DNA of 32,000 nucleotides from Bacillus subtilis subsp. subtilis str. 168 (GCF_000009045.1 NC_000964.3:3990001-4022000); one strand, 5' to 3'. Positions 7,964 to 32,000 are shown, numbered from the stretch's first letter. Notes: a model not told the origin generated them from the letters alone. Numbers and translations: made by a program.

Positions 7964-9097
7964 ATGGCTCAACAAACGAATGTTGCAGGACAAAAAACAG
8001 AAAAACAACGCAAAGCACCTTTCCGCGCCGATCATGTCGGCAGCTTGCTTCGTTCCGTTCCGGTAAAGGAAGCCCGGCAAAAAAAAGCGGCTGGTGAGAT
8101 GACAGCGGAACAGCTTCGTGATATCGAAAATCAAGAGATCACCCGCATCGTGGAAAAACAAAAAGAAATCGGTCTCGATGTGGTAACAGACGGGGAATTC
8201 CGGCGTTCCTGGTGGCATTATGACTTCCTGGAAGGGCTTGACGGTGTGGAACCGTTCATCCCGGCTGAGGGGATTCAGTTCCATAACACAAAAACGAAAG
8301 CGCGCAGCATCAAAGTGACGGGAAAACTCGATTTTACGAGCCACCCAGCGCTCGGTGATTATCAATTTTTACATGAGATTGCCGGTAACGCGACGCCAAA
8401 ATTGACCATTCCCAGTCCAAATATGCTGTTTTTTGGCGAAAAGGCGGATAAAGGGATTTATGACGATCAAGAGGAATACTTTCATGATATGGCCCAAGCG
8501 TACAAAAAAGCAATCAAAGCCTTCTATGATGCTGGCTGCCGTTATCTCCAGCTTGATGATACGTCATGGTCTCTCTTCTTTGAGGACAAAGGCAGAGAGG
8601 TTGTCCGGGCGCTCGGCGGTGATCCAGAAACATTGCCAGCCATATTTGCCAAAACAATTAACGATGCCGTCGCAGACCGGCCTGACGATTTAACGATCAC
8701 AATGCACATTTGCCGCGGCAACTTCCGCTCAACCTGGGCGGCATCAGGAGGGTACGACGCTGTAGCGGAAACGATTTTGGACGGCTTAAACCTTGACGGC
8801 CTTTTCTTGGAATACGATGATGACCGCTCCGGAAACTTTGATCCGCTCCGTTTTGTGAAGCGCAAGGATCTGCAAATTGTGCTCGGCTTGATCACATCGA
8901 AATACGGCGAGCTTGAAAATCCTGAGGATGTGAAACGCCGTATCAATGAAGCCGCGCGTTTTGTCAGCTTGGACCAGCTATGCCTGAGCCCGCAGTGCGG
9001 TTTCGCCTCTACAGAAGAAGGCAACCTTCTGACAGAGGAGCAGCAATGGGCAAAGCTGCGCCATGTCATCGACATTGCCAACGATGTGTGGAGATAA
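7964..9097 (+). CDS. yxjH: MetE-C-terminal-domain-like (cobalamin-independent methionine synthase family) methyltransferase, single-domain, 377 aa
   Basis: The ORF has a GAGG RBS. Conserved family motifs include VVTDGEFRR, HICRGN and a Zn-ligand-like LSPQCGF. It is preceded by an S-box leader. Confidence 0.9.
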   Translation: MAQQTNVAGQKTEKQRKAPFRADHVGSLLRSVPVKEARQKKAAGEMTAEQLRDIENQEITRIVEKQKEIGLDVVTDGEFRRSWWHYDFLEGLDGVEPFIPAEGIQFHNTKTKARSIKVTGKLDFTSHPALGDYQFLHEIAGNATPKLTIPSPNMLFFGEKADKGIYDDQEEYFHDMAQAYKKAIKAFYDAGCRYLQLDDTSWSLFFEDKGREVVRALGGDPETLPAIFAKTINDAVADRPDDLTITMHICRGNFRSTWAASGGYDAVAETILDGLNLDGLFLEYDDDRSGNFDPLRFVKRKDLQIVLGLITSKYGELENPEDVKRRINEAARFVSLDQLCLSPQCGFASTEEGNLLTEEQQWAKLRHVIDIANDVWR

Positions 9098-25986: not shown

Positions 25987-27426
25987 TCATTTATTCGCTT
26001 TATTCACCTTCAGCTGTTTCCCTTTGACGGTTGTGTTCTTCATCACTTTGAGAACATGAGGGCCTTTACCATTTAAAATCTCAACGTATGAGGCGTTATC
26101 CATGATCGTGATGATGCCGATGTCGTCAGCTGACACACCGTCAATTTTGGCAATCGTTCCTACAAAATCAACGGCTCTGATTTTCTTTTTCTTTCCGCCG
26201 TTAAAATACAGCTTCATAATGTCTTTATTCAGCTCTTCGCTTTTGTCCTTTTTGCTTTCCGGACGGTCATTCAGTTTAGCTAGAAATTCTGGTTTCTTCC
26301 TTGCCACTTCCTCTTGAGAAGGTGCTTCTATTTTTTGGATTTCAAATCCGATATATTCTTCAATGTCGGCTAAAAACCGTTTTTCGAAGGCCGTGACAAA
26401 CGAAATGGCCTTTCCTTTGTTCCCTGCGCGTCCCGTTCGGCCCGTGCGGTGGACATAGCTTTCTTTTTCAAGCGGCAGATCATAGTTGATGACAAGGGAG
26501 ATATTTTCAATATCAATCCCGCGCGCGGCGACATCCGTCGCCACTAAGTAACGGTACTCGCCACGTTTAAATTCATTCATGACGTCGAATCGGTCTTCCT
26601 GAATCATTCCGCCGTGAATTTTATCGCATGGATATCCCAAGTCATCCAATTCATCGGTCAGCTGATTGACGTGCTCCTTCGTTCGGCAGAAAATGATGCA
26701 GCTGTCGGGATTCTCCGTCATCAGCACATCTTTCAGCAATGAAAACTTATTCTCTTCTCTTACTTGAATCACCGCATGTTCAATATTTCTTGTGGTTAGG
26801 CCGGCCGCTTTGACCTCGATATGCTCGGGGTTTTGCATATATTGACGGCTCAGCTTCTCGATATCCTGCGGAAGCGTCGCTGAAAACAGCATCGTCGTAC
26901 GCTCAGTCGGCAGATGCTTGATAATCGCCTCCACCTGCTCAATGAAGCCCATATTCAGCATCTCATCCGCTTCATCAATGACCAAATAAGAGAGACGATC
27001 CAACGGCAGCGTGCCTTTTTCGATATGATCCAGAACACGTCCCGGCGTGCCGACAACAATGTGGCTTTTTTGCTTAAGCTCAGCTTTTTGTTTATCAAAG
27101 GAGGATTTTCCAAATACGGCTGTCGCTTTGATCCGTTTAAATCGTCCGATGTTCGTGATATCTTCCTTTACTTGCACCGCAAGCTCACGGGTCGGTGTTA
27201 AAATAAGCGCCTGCGGCTTGTTTTCATCCCAATTCGCCAGCTCACAGAGAGGAATCCCGAACGAAGCCGTTTTCCCGCTTCCTGTCTGTGATTTGACGAC
27301 AAGATCCTTTCGTTCAAGGGCAGCGGGGATCACACTCTGCTGCACCTTGGTCGGTTCTGTATATCCCAGTCCTTCCAATGCTCGTAAAATGTCATGACTG
27401 ATTTGATAGTTTTTAAAATGACTCAT
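25987..27426 (-). CDS. dbpA: DEAD-box RNA helicase with a C-terminal DbpA-type RNA-binding domain (specific for 23S rRNA hairpin 92)
   Basis: ATG 27426 ([10 protein letters not shown]) follows AGGAG by 7 nt. Motifs are the Q-motif (PTKVQ), I (SQTGSGKT), II (DEAD), III (SAT) and VI ([10 protein letters not shown]). The C-terminal domain of about 75 aa ([20 protein letters not shown]) is the DbpA RBD. Historical names are yxiN and deaD. Confidence 0.93.
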
Positions 27427-27507
27427 GTATAAACTCCTGTCTCTTGCAGATGTTCTCATTATACTCTAATTGACCAAGGCATATGTGTTTTGTCGAAAAA
27501 TGATGTA

Positions 27508-28659
27508 TTAAAAGCCAGCGATTCCCTGGCGTTTTAGCTCCTGAACAGCCAATCGCGCCAGTGCGTCGGCCCCCGCGCGATTCGGGTGCAGCGTATCTCC
27601 ATCCATATAAAGCCCGAGTGTTCTTTCCGGACCGATCGATGTAAAGTATGCCGAGCTGAGGACATTTAAGTCAATGAGATATGTTTTTTCCTCTTCGGCC
27701 AAAGCTAAAATAGAGGCCCTGTACCATCTGTTTACAGACGAATGGATGCCTTCAGAAGTAAAATCGGTTGCCCGGCCCTGAGGCGTTGATAGGATGACGT
27801 CCGCTCCTTTCGCTTTTACCTGACGAATCATATCACGCATCACCTCTTTAAACTCCGCTTCAGATTCTTTATGCTTCGGATTTGTGTCATTAATGCCAAG
27901 CTGCAACATAAAATAATCTCCGGGTTTAATATACTTCAGAATCGCCTCAAGCTGTCCATCATTTCTGAACCCTCTCGCGATCTGCCCGCCAGACGCCATG
28001 TTTCTCACTTGAAAGGTGTGTTTATCGATATAGTGAGGCAGCATCTGCCCCCAGCCCGCCTGCTTGCTGCTGTTGAGCGGATAATAATTGCACACCGTCG
28101 AGTCGCCGCCGACATAAATGGTTCGATTCGTTACCGGCTGATCAGACAATTTCTTTATTTTCAAGGCGCTGAGCGTAAAAGCGGTGCCTGCCTTTCCCTC
28201 TGTCACCAGCAGATTCAGCTGCCCGTCGGTGACGGGAATTTGGAACGTATCCTCCGCGCCATCCCCTGTCATATTGATGACCTGAAACACGCCCTCCGCT
28301 GCCACACTGGCCCTTGCCGTATTGCCAAGCGTCACCTTCACCTCATAAAGGCCATTCGGGAGATCAACATTAAACGTGTTATTGCTTTTCGTCCCATACG
28401 CTAAAAACTGAACCGCATCACTCTTCACACCAGCCCCGGATGCCGCCACATCCCTCATATTCTCCGGTGTTTGAAAACCGTAGCCCTTTGACCGGTCATA
28501 CCGATCAGACGCCCTGACACCAATATAACCAGGCTCCATCGAACCGCTTCCAAAGTCAAACTGATACACCTTCGGCTCCGCCGCCTTCACATTCTCAATC
28601 CCGCCAAAACACAGCATCAGCATCATCACAAAAACCGCTGCCATCCATTTTTTCATCAA
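27508..28659 (-). CDS. yxiM: Secreted SGNH/GDSL-family esterase (rhamnogalacturonan-acetylesterase-like) with an N-terminal beta-sandwich or carbohydrate-binding-like domain
   Basis: Signal peptide MMKKWMAAVFVMMLMLCFGGIENVKA. SGNH block I is IYVGGDSTV, block III is LGINDT and block V is DTLHPN. Confidence 0.88.
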   Translation of the reverse strand: MMKKWMAAVFVMMLMLCFGGIENVKAAEPKVYQFDFGSGSMEPGYIGVRASDRYDRSKGYGFQTPENMRDVAASGAGVKSDAVQFLAYGTKSNNTFNVDLPNGLYEVKVTLGNTARASVAAEGVFQVINMTGDGAEDTFQIPVTDGQLNLLVTEGKAGTAFTLSALKIKKLSDQPVTNRTIYVGGDSTVCNYYPLNSSKQAGWGQMLPHYIDKHTFQVRNMASGGQIARGFRNDGQLEAILKYIKPGDYFMLQLGINDTNPKHKESEAEFKEVMRDMIRQVKAKGADVILSTPQGRATDFTSEGIHSSVNRWYRASILALAEEEKTYLIDLNVLSSAYFTSIGPERTLGLYMDGDTLHPNRAGADALARLAVQELKRQGIAGF

Positions 28660-28776: not shown

Positions 28777-28808
28777 AGGGGAAAATCAGTGTGACTTCTT
28801 GTCACACT
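28777..28808 (-). terminator. Putative terminator closing the small-ORF array; the hairpin is built from the last 7 codons of the final ORF
   Basis: AGTGTGAC (28788-28795), loop TTCTT, GTCACACT (28801-28808). On the minus strand it is followed by GATTTTCCCCTTCTT. Confidence 0.4.
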
Positions 28809-29136
28809 TGATCACATCCCAACCTCCGCAATAGAAGCTTATTTGGTTTTCTTCGTCATACACATAATAACGGAGTCTTTCCCATTGATCGTCAGTCGGT
28901 ACAATCTCCAATGCAACCGAATCGATGGATTCAAGGTCATCCAGCTTTGATGCACTAATGTTTTCAAACCGCAATTGAATGTCACAGGTTTGAGCAGATC
29001 GTTTTCATTCAAACACAGGAATATGAATATAACGATCATCTTCTTTCATATAGAAAGAAAACTCGTTTAATGTAAATGGACCTGTATCCTCATCAGAAAG
29101 ATGCTGTTTCAATTTCTCGTATTGTGTGATATTCAA
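28786..29136 (-). pseudogene. Last ORF of the array (about 115 codons), interrupted by an in-frame TGA at 29005-29007
   Basis: A TTG at 29136 lies 7 nt after AGAGGG and 11 nt after the yxiK stop. It reads (M)NITQYEKLKQHLSDEDTGPFTLNEFSFYMKEDDRYIHIPVFE-TGA-KRSAQTCDIQLRFENISASKLDD...FYCGGWDVIKCDKKSH in one frame. The track's 62-aa ORF (28786..28974) is the distal part and has no RBS. Confidence 0.55.
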
Positions 29137-29147
29137 ATGAATTCCCT

Positions 29148-29609
29148 CTATTTATATGATTCACCGCCAATCATATAAATGTCCACAGCATCGTATTCAA
29201 ACCATATGATCCGTTCGCCTGAGTCCGTTAGGCATTGGAGCTTCCCTTCTGAAAAATAGCTTTTATCCGGTTGAGGATCAGTGATCAGAAAAACATCATC
29301 ATTGATGGAAGCTAGCAGAAAGAGAAAATCTGCAATATCCCGGTCTGCTTCCTGTAATATGGATTGGAAATGGAATTCCCTTTTGGCCAGCTTCGTCACC
29401 TTGTAAGCATGACCTTCAAAATACTCGGACAGGTCTTCTATAAATGAACCAGTCGTTATTACCTGTATCATGATTCGATCGTAGGCAAGCCCTGCCCAAA
29501 AACGATAAAACGACTCTGCATCTTCAAGTTCGCATGCCATAACGGTTTGGTCAGGCTTAAGCTCGATCATGTCCAAATTGCCAATACTGCTTATAGAGGT
29601 TATTTCCAT
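29148..29609 (-). CDS. yxiK: Hypothetical 153-aa cytoplasmic protein, a candidate orphan immunity protein
   Basis: ORF with a GGGGAAG RBS, starting 15 nt after the yxiJ stop. It has no signal peptide, TM helix or catalytic motif. The symbol is assigned by position in the 168 gene order. Confidence 0.7.
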   Translation of the reverse strand: MEITSISSIGNLDMIELKPDQTVMACELEDAESFYRFWAGLAYDRIMIQVITTGSFIEDLSEYFEGHAYKVTKLAKREFHFQSILQEADRDIADFLFLLASINDDVFLITDPQPDKSYFSEGKLQCLTDSGERIIWFEYDAVDIYMIGGESYK

Positions 29610-29624
29610 AAAATCTTCCCCTTA

Positions 29625-29921
29625 TCAGTTGGATAGCGCAACGCAAATCTCTTGTCTGACTTGTTCATACAAGAGAATGTGATGATACAGATCCTTATCG
29701 TTTTTGATCATATCCGGAAGTATGTCAGGATACAGCTCAAAAAAGCTTTTCTCCAACGAACGCCGCTGATGCCGGGGTATCCTTTTATTCGCCAGCACAT
29801 AATCCAAACTGCCAGCAACAAGCATAAAAAACTCATAGATTTCCGCTTCAAAGCCGTACAATTCATCAGGGTACTGCTTTTCTTCAAGCTCTCGCTGTCT
29901 TTTTCTCAGTTTTTGAAGCAC
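29625..29921 (-). CDS. yxiJ: Hypothetical 98-aa helical protein (YxiJ-like family), a candidate orphan immunity protein
   Basis: ORF with a GGGAGAGGA RBS, starting 27 nt after the yxiI stop. The + strand ORF 29652..30182 is an antisense shadow. Confidence 0.7.
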   Translation of the reverse strand: MLQKLRKRQRELEEKQYPDELYGFEAEIYEFFMLVAGSLDYVLANKRIPRHQRRSLEKSFFELYPDILPDMIKNDKDLYHHILLYEQVRQEICVALSN

Positions 29922-29948
29922 GTTGATCCTCTCCCTTCCGCAATAATC

Positions 29949-30437
29949 TCATTTATTTCGAAACAGAATAGGCGGATCATTATCTATCGCCTCCAACAGC
30001 TCTTCACCAAACACAGTGATTGCACATTTCCACGGGTCTCCCAAAAGTCCCCAGGAGAAGTCCTGATGAAAAAAGAAATAATAGTCTCCATTTGGAAATA
30101 CGGGAACAGGCCATTCGCCAAATTCATCCTTAGGCATTGCCTGATGAGGACTAAAGGTATATCCGTCATGCTGCCAATCTAGTGCGTACATTACATCGTT
30201 CTTTCCAGTACCTAATTGAAATGCTTTTAAAATAGAAGTCTCTAAATCACTTAGCACTCCGCTCACATCATTATGACCAGCTTTACTGCTCATCGCGCTT
30301 GAGATATCAAACACTCGATATGGATCAGGCGGGATGATGTGATGACATCTGCTTCCGGGCTTCCATTTTATGATCTTGTTCACTTCTGACCAGATGCGGT
30401 CTTGTTTTGTCTGACTTAAAGCGCGCCAATTCATCAT
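29949..30437 (-). CDS. yxiI: Hypothetical 162-aa protein (DUF2716-like), a candidate orphan immunity protein
   Basis: ORF with an AGGGATGAG RBS region, starting 17 nt after the preceding stop. W/F/P-rich core (..WQHDGYTFSPHQAMPKDEFGEWPVPVFPNGDYYFFFHQDFSWG..). Confidence 0.7.
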   Translation of the reverse strand: MMNWRALSQTKQDRIWSEVNKIIKWKPGSRCHHIIPPDPYRVFDISSAMSSKAGHNDVSGVLSDLETSILKAFQLGTGKNDVMYALDWQHDGYTFSPHQAMPKDEFGEWPVPVFPNGDYYFFFHQDFSWGLLGDPWKCAITVFGEELLEAIDNDPPILFRNK

Positions 30438-30454
30438 AATCTCATCCCTACACC

Positions 30455-31306
30455 TTATTGGATATCCTGCTTATAAACACCAGAAGAGGCCACTGCGTAA
30501 ACAGCGTAACTTGTCAGTTTCAGCTGTTGAACATCTAGGCCTTCACCGTTCGAATCACAGCATGTTATCTCTTCCATCTCTTGACTCACATCGGCAGAAA
30601 TCAAATAAAGAGACGACTTAAGGTCTGCACTGTAACAATTGAACGTCCCAACCAAAAAACCTTCTTCGGATATCGCGAGCTGATCAAATGCTTCTGAGTC
30701 CGGCTCTTTATCCGACAGAATCCACACCCGTCTCACGACCGTTTCATCAAATGCGGCAATGACTGCATCTCCGTAATACAGCATATAAATCAAGCCGTTT
30801 TTTTCTGCAAGTCCATAACAATCATCTACAGCAGGCGCATCCATTTCTTCAAGCTTTCTATCAATGTGTATTTCCTTCTGCTGACCATCTAACGTAAAAC
30901 ACCACACACTATGGCCGTTGGGATTCTCATCATGATAAATCCCTTCATCACATAAACCGACCCAAAGCTGTTGTTTCTAATCCAAAAGACAGCAGGAAAC
31001 CCCTGAAGGCAAGTGAAAAACACTTTTCACCCTTCCCTCTTCTGAAAAAACCTTTACCTTCGGCTCGTACGATTCGTAATAAACGAAGACATAGCCATCT
31101 GCACATTGTTGAAAGAGCAGAATATCACTGTATGAAATCTGCTCTTTCACTCTAAAATCCCGAACATCACCGGAAGGATCATAGATTGTAATGGTGATAC
31201 CACCTTTCAACCCTTTTCCAATGTAGACACGCCCCTGTGGATCAGCATGGAAAAAACAATCTTGGGTGTTCTCGTTGATGATTTTATTCAATTTTAATTT
31301 TTTCAT
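30455..31306 (-). pseudogene. Single reading frame of about 283 codons split by an in-frame TAG at 30977-30979, probably the pair annotated yxiH plus yxzG in strain 168
   Basis: ATG 31306 has an AGGAG RBS. The frame reads ...HLPSGVSCCLLD-TAG-KQQLWVGLCDEGIYHDENPNGHSVWCFTLDGQ... with no frame change (30977 minus 30905 is 72 nt). The second track ORF starts at a GTG with no RBS. Confidence 0.65.
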
Positions 31307-31428
31307 TGGTTATGCTCCTAGGTTCGAAATGAAATGATAAGAATAAACCATTTATTAGCTATTAGTAACGGACAACCTAGTTTCATTAATCGTTTTGGGA
31401 TAAATCTACTTTCCAATTCAGCCTTAAA

Positions 31429-31845
31429 TCATTTAGTGTTTAATTGGTATGCATAAAACGATTGATCATCAAAGCGAACTGTTTCAGCTTCTATAGCAAT
31501 CAGCATTCTGTTCATGTCAATAAGAAAGTTAGCATTTGATTGATACTCCGGAATTATAGAATTTGATAGATTCCCGATTCCTTCTGGATGATAACTCATC
31601 TCAAATACTTGCCAATTGTATTCTTCCGGATCTATTTTTTCCAATCTCATGTCGCCAACATCTGCACTATAATAAGCGGATGCCACATTTTGAAATGAAA
31701 TTTTATGCGTATATTCACCTTCATCTTCAAAAACCTTAATATCAAGTGAGAGTTCTTTTTTAAACACATTAAAATCTAAATGAAGGACACTGCACCCCTT
31801 ATCTATATAATCAACCCATTCATTAATCGTTTGATACATTGTCAT
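31429..31845 (-). CDS. yxiG: Hypothetical 138-aa protein, a candidate immunity protein paired with the upstream partial ORF
   Basis: The track ORF start (31920) overlaps the upstream gene's 3' end. ATG 31845 (or 31839) follows AGAGGCAGGGG and gives MTMYQTINEWVDYIDKG... Confidence 0.65.
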   Translation of the reverse strand: MTMYQTINEWVDYIDKGCSVLHLDFNVFKKELSLDIKVFEDEGEYTHKISFQNVASAYYSADVGDMRLEKIDPEEYNWQVFEMSYHPEGIGNLSNSIIPEYQSNANFLIDMNRMLIAIEAETVRFDDQSFYAYQLNTK

Positions 31846-31895
31846 CCCCTGCCTCTTTTTAAACAATAACGCCTTGCCACCAAGCAGAAAACAAA

Positions 31896-32000
31896 TTACT
31901 CCGTATATTGTTTGATCCAATCATTTAAATCATCTGTTGAATGCAAATAAGTTTCTGATGAATCTTTCAAATCAATCCCACTTAGAAGGATTAACATATC
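31896..32000 (-). CDS. 3' end (last 34 codons) of an upstream ORF that continues beyond the window
   Basis: The minus-strand frame is open from base 32000 and reads ...DMLILLSGIDLKDSSETYLHSTDDLNDWIKQYTE, ending at TAA (31898-31896). It is too short and truncated to appear in the track. It might be yxzC of strain 168, but I cannot confirm this. Confidence 0.45.
   Translation of the reverse strand, partial: DMLILLSGIDLKDSSETYLHSTDDLNDWIKQYTE

Follow-up and report, generated by a model that had tools for sequence, protein, structure and literature searches.

Directly downstream of wapA and wapI, a toxin gene and its immunity gene, the chromosome of Bacillus subtilis strain 168 carries a tight same-strand run of small genes, and the question that this locus raises is what such genes are for. 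We examined a 32,000-nt stretch of B. subtilis subsp. subtilis str. 168 (GCF_000009045.1 NC_000964.3:3990001-4022000), called the window throughout, in which positions 28786 to 32000 hold the genes from the 3' end of yxzC to yxzJ. Very probably, this region is the wapA-distal portion of a heterogeneous polyimmunity (orphan immunity) locus that adjoins the contact-dependent inhibition locus wapA-wapI. A model that read the window from its bases alone (the sequence-only reading) had proposed an orphan immunity island attached to wapA. That proposal is now supported by relatives of four of the six complete gene families, and of the neighboring YxiF, that occupy the cognate immunity slot beside toxins elsewhere. 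The contigs and loci compared are given by L numbers where they must be told apart.

Anatomy of the array downstream of wapA-wapI

The region is B. subtilis 168-like, and the open reading frame (ORF) list, the sequence itself, and direct calculation place seven minus-strand units in it, with the coordinates and spacing that the sequence-only reading had given. The units are 99 to 284 codons long and run in tandem in a single orientation. Recalculated gaps are small (50, 122, 17, 27, 15, and 11 nt, counted downward from the partial ORF at the window edge), and a purine-rich stretch like a Shine-Dalgarno sequence, judged by eye, lies ahead of each ORF. A higher A+T content than in the neighbors had also been claimed, and calculation agrees: GC content is 39.7% in 28786-32000 and 46.1% in the remaining window, with yxiG at 32.9%. 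In strain 168 the products are named YxzC, YxiG, YxiH plus YxzG, YxiI, YxiJ, YxiK, and YxzJ plus an unnamed 62-aa fragment, all of them annotated as uncharacterized.

The public contig L001 is the reverse complement of the window, with identity over 10,572 bases, and runs on upstream through yxzC, yxiF, wapI (PF24716), and wapA (2334 aa); wapI is separated from the window edge by yxiF and the greater part of yxzC. Because this contig is identical to the window and continues into wapI-wapA, the map that the sequence-only reading had given, with both genes upstream past base 32000, is correct.

At the window edge, the minus-strand unit at 31896-32000 is the 3' end of yxzC, the last 34 codons of a larger ORF that is complete at L001 9582-9950. 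YxzC has a conserved core of ~81 aa and is acidic, and its homologues occupy other positions in the arrays of B. velezensis, B. nakamurai, and B. atrophaeus. That this partial ORF might be a toxin tip had been considered, and we rejected it: the ORF is the C-terminus of YxzC and has no similarity to any WapA C-terminal tip. Next comes yxiG (31429-31845, minus strand; 138 aa), which matches the Pfam family YxiG (PF24711; E 1.7e-32) with 112.8 bits against a gathering cut-off of 27. The genes annotated as yxiH and yxzG form a single split gene of 283 codons (30455-31306, minus strand), interrupted by one in-frame TAG at 30977-30979; the stop is a single-base change from GAG, and the gene is intact at 283 aa in L002, L008, and L105. 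Downstream of it, yxiI (29949-30437, minus strand; 162 aa) belongs to DUF2716 (PF10898; E 4.6e-51; 173.2 bits against a gathering cut-off of 24). The 98-aa product of yxiJ (29625-29921, minus strand; GTG start) matches PF14176 (E 1.1e-13; 52.2 bits against a cut-off of 27) and covers positions 31 to 106 of that 109-position profile. For yxiK (29148-29609, minus strand; 153 aa) there is no Pfam or NCBIfam match; its family is tiny, with 14 representatives among 1.84 billion proteins, and its homologues were found always within these arrays. The last unit (28786-29136, minus strand; TTG start) is again a single split gene, of 116 codons, comprising yxzJ and the 62-aa fragment. Its in-frame TGA at 29005-29007 is a single-base change from TTA, and the gene is intact at 116 aa in L002, L008, L009, L090, and L099. 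Homologues of YxzJ, 48% identical, also close the arrays of B. velezensis and B. nakamurai. Both interrupted units had been recognized as such from the bases alone.

These units are mutually dissimilar and carry no signal peptides, membrane segments, or catalytic motifs, as the sequence-only reading had held. The hhalign probability was below 2% for all 36 pairs of the nine locus families (WapI, YxiF, and YxzC among them), and the array is therefore heterogeneous, composed of mutually unrelated families. For WapI, the probability was at most 0.9% against every array family, and no window unit matched its Pfam model (PF24716). Pfam recognizes three of the unit families, YxiG (PF24711), DUF2716 (PF10898), and YxiJ (PF14176), each of unknown function; the remaining window units match nothing in Pfam or NCBIfam, and neither collection revealed an enzyme domain in any window unit. 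The array proteins have no signal peptides or membrane segments, and no 19-residue window in them is as hydrophobic as a clear membrane helix. Every array protein is net acidic, and the 115-residue tip of the strain 168 WapA contains 31 lysines and arginines and no aspartate or glutamate. Searches of anti-phage defense and phage protein libraries with the window proteins were negative or at chance level, as were Rfam and repeat searches. Profile searches assigned no housekeeping, regulator, defense, or phage function, so that the housekeeping roles which the sequence-only reading had named as incompatible with an immunity island did not arise.

The array is co-regulated with the toxin gene. 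In one transcriptome, wapA, wapI, yxzC, yxiF, yxiG, yxiH, yxzG, yxiI, yxiJ, yxiK, and yxiM drop together 7- to 10-fold (PMC5717166), and a second data set has wapA-yxxG, yxzC, yxiF, yxzG, yxiG, and yxiJ among the co-affected genes (PMC4495994). Consensus promoter and terminator scans inside the array found nothing convincing, with counts at chance level; the array is probably read through from the wapA promoter, which is the simplest reading. Between wapI and yxiF, at L001 ~8985-9025 (~840 nt past window base 32000), there is a perfect 12-bp hairpin (AAGCTTGTATCG...CGATACAAGCTT) followed by a T-run, which was read directly from L001 and was missed by the consensus terminator scan. This hairpin looks like a leaky terminator dividing wapAI from the array.

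Co-regulation with wapA, which occurs under WalR-linked conditions, is also what one would expect if the genes were accessory factors for the export, processing, regulation, or wall attachment of WapA, or belonged to a stress or defense operon with no tie to WapA beyond read-through, and three of the families have no toxin link. We nevertheless regard this explanation as extremely unlikely: the proteins have neither signal peptides nor membrane segments, they match no defense, phage, enzyme, or regulator families, the array content is variable and non-orthologous among strains whose WapA body is near-identical, and the array is kept where wapA has been lost.

Relatives of the array genes beside other toxins

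The evidence that ties the array to immunity comes from 80 loci anchored on the conserved WapA pre-tip region, which we searched with the array proteins by tblastn and iterated profiles. In these loci, four of the six families that are complete in the window have relatives in the slot directly after a full-length WapA/Rhs toxin, and so does YxiF, whose gene lies just outside the window. The sequence-only reading had suggested looking for homologues adjoining WapA C-terminal domains elsewhere, and such homologues were found for YxiG, YxiH/YxzG, DUF2716, YxiJ, and YxiF. In B. velezensis (L098), a gene for a YxiG 85% identical to the strain 168 copy begins 3 nt downstream of the stop codon of a 2343-aa WapA, the tip of which has no Pfam match. 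In B. rugosus (L009), YxiF starts 5 nt after a WapA that ends in a Tox-HNH-EHHH tip (PF15657). The first gene after WapA in B. nakamurai (L010 12160-13038) encodes a 292-aa member of the YxiH/YxzG family (profile E 8e-44), again beside a tip without a Pfam match. In Listeria rocourtiae, a 2212-aa WapA-like toxin has a tip that matches the Pfam ribonuclease family of the barnase/RNase T1 type (PF00545; E 1.3e-12), and its stop codon is overlapped by a DUF2716 gene (L021 12154-12660). Finally, an Rhs toxin of Bhargavaea (L015), again with a tip that has no Pfam match, is followed at a distance of 57 nt by a full-length member of the YxiJ family (E 1.5e-45).

Three of these pairings of tip and immunity family repeat between distant genera. 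The tip of the B. velezensis WapA (L098) is 39% identical to an orphan tip in L. rocourtiae (L021), which has a YxiG-family gene (E 1.6e-31) after it. The Bhargavaea tip (L015) shares 53% identity with one from Listeria portnoyi (L019), after which comes a weak YxiJ-like gene, and the B. nakamurai tip (L010) is 48% identical to an Anoxybacillus Rhs tip adjoining a member of the YxiH/YxzG family. Homologous tips thus keep the same immunity family across genera, which is the expected signature of cognate pairs. By this comparison, yxiG is predicted to be an orphan immunity gene against the WapA tip type of B. velezensis, yxiI is predicted to encode an immunity protein of a family, DUF2716, that is paired with a barnase-type RNase toxin tip, and yxiJ is a further predicted orphan immunity gene. 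For YxiK, YxzJ, and YxzC, it is only the association with the array that suggests an immunity role.

In the mechanism that we propose, each gene would encode a small acidic cytoplasmic protein that binds and blocks a single kind of C-terminal nuclease tip; such tips are strongly basic and are borne by the WapA or Rhs toxins of other strains or species. The array would be expressed with wapA, probably by read-through past the hairpin after wapI, and the cell would thereby hold antidotes to toxins that are not of its own making. Genes would be gained when a swap of the wapA tip displaces an old wapI allele, and also through horizontal exchange; they would be lost through point-mutational decay, as with the two of six complete genes that are dead in strain 168, and through deletion. 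The data show the anatomy and linkage of the array, its pairing with toxins at the level of families, its polymorphism, its pattern of selection, and its co-regulation; both the physical neutralization of the tips and the specificity of the strain 168 copies are what we infer.

The sequence-only reading had also pictured an accumulation of orphan tips together with immunity genes. Genes of the immunity type are present in the strain 168 array; toxin tips are not. Neither the seven WapA tips known from the B. subtilis group nor the Rhs core match anything downstream of wapI in L001, and the tips match wapA only. In related loci, Rhs-core fragments with tips, followed by small genes, do occur, in B. 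nakamurai (L010 13322-13905), Bhargavaea (L015), Listeria (L021), and Anoxybacillus (L024), and a Shouchella locus (L013 14186-15211) has an Rhs-core/tip fragment with a WapI homologue. Modules of this sort lend some color to the idea that the array consists of classical orphan toxin-tip and immunity modules in the style of enterobacterial rhs and cdi loci, with some ORFs representing pieces of displaced toxins that recombination with wapA could re-arm. For strain 168 this is very unlikely: no Rhs-core fragment lies downstream of wapI, the array proteins are acidic and the tips basic, and five of the families fill immunity slots elsewhere and not toxin slots.

Variation, selection, and probable exchange of array genes

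Polymorphism across strains, in both the presence and the arrangement of cassettes, was another expectation of the sequence-only reading, and it was seen. At least seven WapA tips are found in the B. subtilis group, and the first gene downstream is a different one for each. In a family-by-family map of thirteen loci, the block from yxiG to yxzJ is broadly conserved in B. subtilis, B. rugosus, B. spizizenii, B. halotolerans, and B. atrophaeus, with cassettes inserted in it or missing from it, including DUF2716 and a block of 252-, 160-, and 109-aa genes; the gene order differs in B. velezensis and B. nakamurai. Even within B. subtilis, L001, L002, L089, and L099 differ in their first two to three genes; the 252/160/109-aa block is present in some and not in others, and the broken genes are not the same. 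Immunity families that are validated or already named also stand in these arrays. The 252-aa gene, in L009, has a borderline match to Imm26. The B. spizizenii array (L106) has a DUF2750 gene, a family that PMC3482391 equates with Imm16, and orphan WapI homologues lie in the arrays of B. spizizenii L106 and B. velezensis L011. Pseudogenes and remnants are frequent: YxiJ is broken in L090, DUF2716 in L089 and L091, and YxiK in L098, and remnants of YxiG and YxiF persist in L011. In one ORF of the B. velezensis locus L011 (13363-13734), the beginning fits the YxiK profile and the remainder toward the end fits that of YxiF. Two neighboring cassettes have been fused here by a deletion, which illustrates how the array decays; homology between YxiK and YxiF was rejected, the hhalign probability for the pair being 0.3%.

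Arrays with intact genes also persist where wapA is gone, in B. subtilis L002, B. halotolerans L104/L105, and B. atrophaeus L090/L091. The deletion in L002 extends from just upstream of wapA into yxzC. Short remnants of a 148-aa immunity family, cognate to the WapA type of B. velezensis L011, were seen in two of these wapA-less settings (L002 9257-9685; L104/L105 8166-8482); lying just upstream of yxzC, they are the scar of an earlier wapA-wapI pair.

Frequent breakage raises the question of whether the ORFs are anything but functionless decaying remnants, former cognate wapI alleles that were stranded by tip swaps and are drifting to loss. This would account for the two broken units among the six complete ones in strain 168, for the other broken members in L090, L089, L091, L098, and L011, and for a ratio of nonsynonymous to synonymous substitution (dN/dS) several-fold above that of the flanks. 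By Nei-Gojobori estimates, the array genes have dN/dS values of 0.15 to 0.5, compared to 0.03 to 0.13 in the flanks (yxiM, yxiN, yxxF, and the wapA body), and YxiK values range from 0.16 to 0.58. The array ratio is above that of the flanks yet well below 1 in every family, which indicates that constraint is relaxed but real. Intact copies are, moreover, kept in three lineages without wapA, the genes are transcribed with wapA, and the synonymous divergence (dS) between B. subtilis and B. atrophaeus points to recent spread of five of the genes and not to passive decay. We therefore consider it unlikely that the array is no longer of use.

The divergence estimates differ sharply between array and flanks. 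Between B. subtilis L008 and B. atrophaeus L090/L091, dS is 0.15 to 0.31 in the five genes from yxiH/yxzG to yxzJ (window equivalents 28786-31306) and 0.9 to 1.9 in the flanking yxiM, yxiN, and yxxF (window equivalents 25987-28659). An exception is yxiG, with a dS of ~1.1 against B. atrophaeus and B. rugosus; the strain 168-type yxiG and the cognate-slot gene of B. velezensis are separated by a dS of 0.46, closer than the saturated flanks predict. The low dS of the block, together with the pattern in yxiG, points to horizontal exchange of cassettes between species, and the estimates imply that the yxiH/yxzG-yxzJ block would have been exchanged recently. The 43-aa YxzJ fragment made by the TGA at 29005-29007 has been reported in many B. 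subtilis contigs and also in B. halotolerans. Because the fragment is listed in both, the broken yxzJ allele seems to be shared between species, through exchange or as an old polymorphism, and not to be private to strain 168.

Several observations weigh against an immunity role for the array. Two of the genes are already inactivated in strain 168. Except for YxiG, the relatives in cognate slots are distant, and the targets of the strain 168 copies are therefore predicted at the level of families: identity to the 168 copies is ~20 to 25% for DUF2716 and for the YxiH/YxzG family; YxiF reaches 46%, and YxiJ 52% over a stretch of 44 residues. The strain 168 proteins may thus act on other targets or on none. 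YxiK, YxzJ, and YxzC were never seen beside a toxin in toxin-anchored loci or in protein, viral-contig, and metagenome searches. A concatenated YxiK, YxzJ, and YxzC query found no match in a large protein collection, and alignments of the three families found no relatives in viral contigs. A metagenome scan for YxiK relatives returned one B. subtilis-group contig and fragments too short to show context. Distant DUF2716 genes in Paenibacillus, a Bacillus sp., and Actinopolymorpha have no adjacent toxin in the three contexts seen. No recombinase or repeat that would explain the gain of cassettes was found at the locus. A profile match to SUKH/SMI1 or to named or numbered Imm families, which the sequence-only reading had thought worth seeking, was not obtained for any window unit at E values up to 1. 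Structural searches, for their part, yielded one weak hint alone. The AlphaFold model of YxiI (pLDDT 91, pTM 0.88) has a single notable Foldseek neighbor in the PDB, the CdiI chain 5t86_I (probability 0.89, E 0.1, TM 0.41 to 0.51); the modeled likeness is weak and no more than suggestive. The same chain has been noted as a neighbor of another immunity family (PMC9424270). The YxiK model is a small alpha/beta fold (pLDDT 87) for which Foldseek gave no significant PDB match, generic partial ones only, and PDB sequence searches with YxiG, YxiI, and YxiH/YxzG gave no match.

Known systems, predicted roles, and neighboring genes

The locus is of a well-known kind, and its value is practical, in the functions and toxin partners that can be proposed for y-genes. 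Heterogeneous polyimmunity loci, as described in the survey by Zhang, Iyer, Aravind et al. (Biology Direct 2012, PMC3482391), are tandem, closely spaced, structurally unrelated genes in the same orientation, with no toxin cassettes between them, whose number and type vary among strains of a species and whose products are immunity proteins, each neutralizing a toxin domain. The strain 168 array shares with them a tight same-strand run of unrelated small cytoplasmic genes, the absence of toxins, strain-variable content, and probably a single message. It differs in that it is joined to an active toxin locus, wapA-wapI, whereas the others stand alone; it is also without an adjacent recombinase and has no SUKH or numbered Imm member, its families being YxiG, YxiJ, DUF2716, and three without any Pfam model. 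With the orphan rhs-CT/rhsI and cdiA-CT/cdiI modules (Koskiniemi et al. 2014, PMC3967940; Poole et al. 2011), the array has in common its site directly downstream of an Rhs-family toxin and immunity gene, the retention of immunity genes that do not fit the resident toxin, and a plausible origin in displaced older cassettes. In contrast to those modules, it has lost or never had the toxin-tip halves that L010, L013, L015, L021, and L024 still carry; it therefore cannot re-arm wapA and would serve in defense only.

WapI itself offers the nearest comparison. PMC4436062 and PMC8321402, in summarizing Koskiniemi et al. 2013, describe it as a small acidic protein, validated experimentally, that neutralizes the tRNase tip of WapA. 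The array shares its locus and transcription context, and both B. velezensis and B. spizizenii have orphan WapI homologues in their arrays. No array family is homologous to WapI, however, and the predicted toxin partners are borne by other strains or species.

Work by Ross and colleagues in 2019 reportedly described acquired interbacterial defense islands of Bacteroidales as arrays of orphan type VI secretion system (T6SS) immunity genes that are kept, and exchanged horizontally, apart from the matching toxin. The likeness lies in the persistence of 168-type arrays without wapA and in dS values far below those of the flanks. The differences are that here the toxins are Sec-exported, wall-associated Rhs proteins of Gram-positive bacteria and not T6SS effectors, and that the array occupies a fixed chromosomal site with no mobile-element or integrase context seen. 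We lean, if only slightly, toward viewing the yxiF-yxzJ array as the Gram-positive counterpart of such islands: an exchanged, wapA-independent stock of antidotes against Sec-exported Rhs/WapA toxins that includes at least five immunity families not so annotated, with YxiK, YxzJ, and YxzC directed against unrecognized toxins. If this were true, YxiF would be an immunity protein against HNH-EHHH tips, DUF2716 an inhibitor of barnase-type RNases unrelated to barstar, and YxiG, YxiJ, and the 283-aa YxiH/YxzG family immunity proteins against three unnamed tips, and YxiK, YxzJ, and YxzC would belong to toxins yet to be recognized.

A literature search found no paper that names these genes immunity genes; it left out Koskiniemi et al. 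2013 and the supplement of PMC3482391, where a prior mention is possible. The analysis offers a testable role for ~8 uncharacterized genes of the best-studied Gram-positive model and ties three Pfam families of unknown function (YxiG, YxiJ, and DUF2716), as well as YxiF, to specific toxin-tip types. Strain 168 is predicted to resist WapA of the B. velezensis type through yxiG and of the B. rugosus type through yxiF, and to have lost resistance to the toxin type covered by the YxiH/YxzG family. Such differences, if real, would affect how competition experiments between natural isolates are interpreted.

Downstream, the array gives way to yxiM (27508-28659, minus strand), which Pfam domains identify as a GDSL esterase with a signal peptide. 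It is 95 to 96% identical across B. subtilis and B. rugosus and forms the conserved flank downstream of the array, with no part in immunity. A divergent PadR/DUF2812 gene pair, missing from the 168-type window, lies between the array end and yxiM in four loci (L099 13678-14537, L090 14543-15402, L104 12809-13668, and L106 7869-8764). In a plasmid search, YxzJ had a single match, CP063895.1, a 33-kb record labeled Klebsiella variicola that holds an 86% identical homologue at 2178-2480; this stretch is probably Bacillus DNA, mis-assigned or a contaminant. The distant DUF2716 gene of Paenibacillus sp. FSL R5-0341 belongs to an extended same-strand series of small genes unrelated to one another (L092 3664-13538; DinB_2, 2'-5' RNA ligase-like, Peptidase_S51, LprI, His_Phos_1, CPT-like, and several domainless ones) with no toxin nearby. 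A second run of small same-strand genes was seen in B. halotolerans (L104/L105 305-2805), upstream of bglPH, and includes two genes of DUF2247, which PMC3482391 equates with Imm38. Located at the position of the yxiD LXG toxin locus, this run is probably another immunity array.

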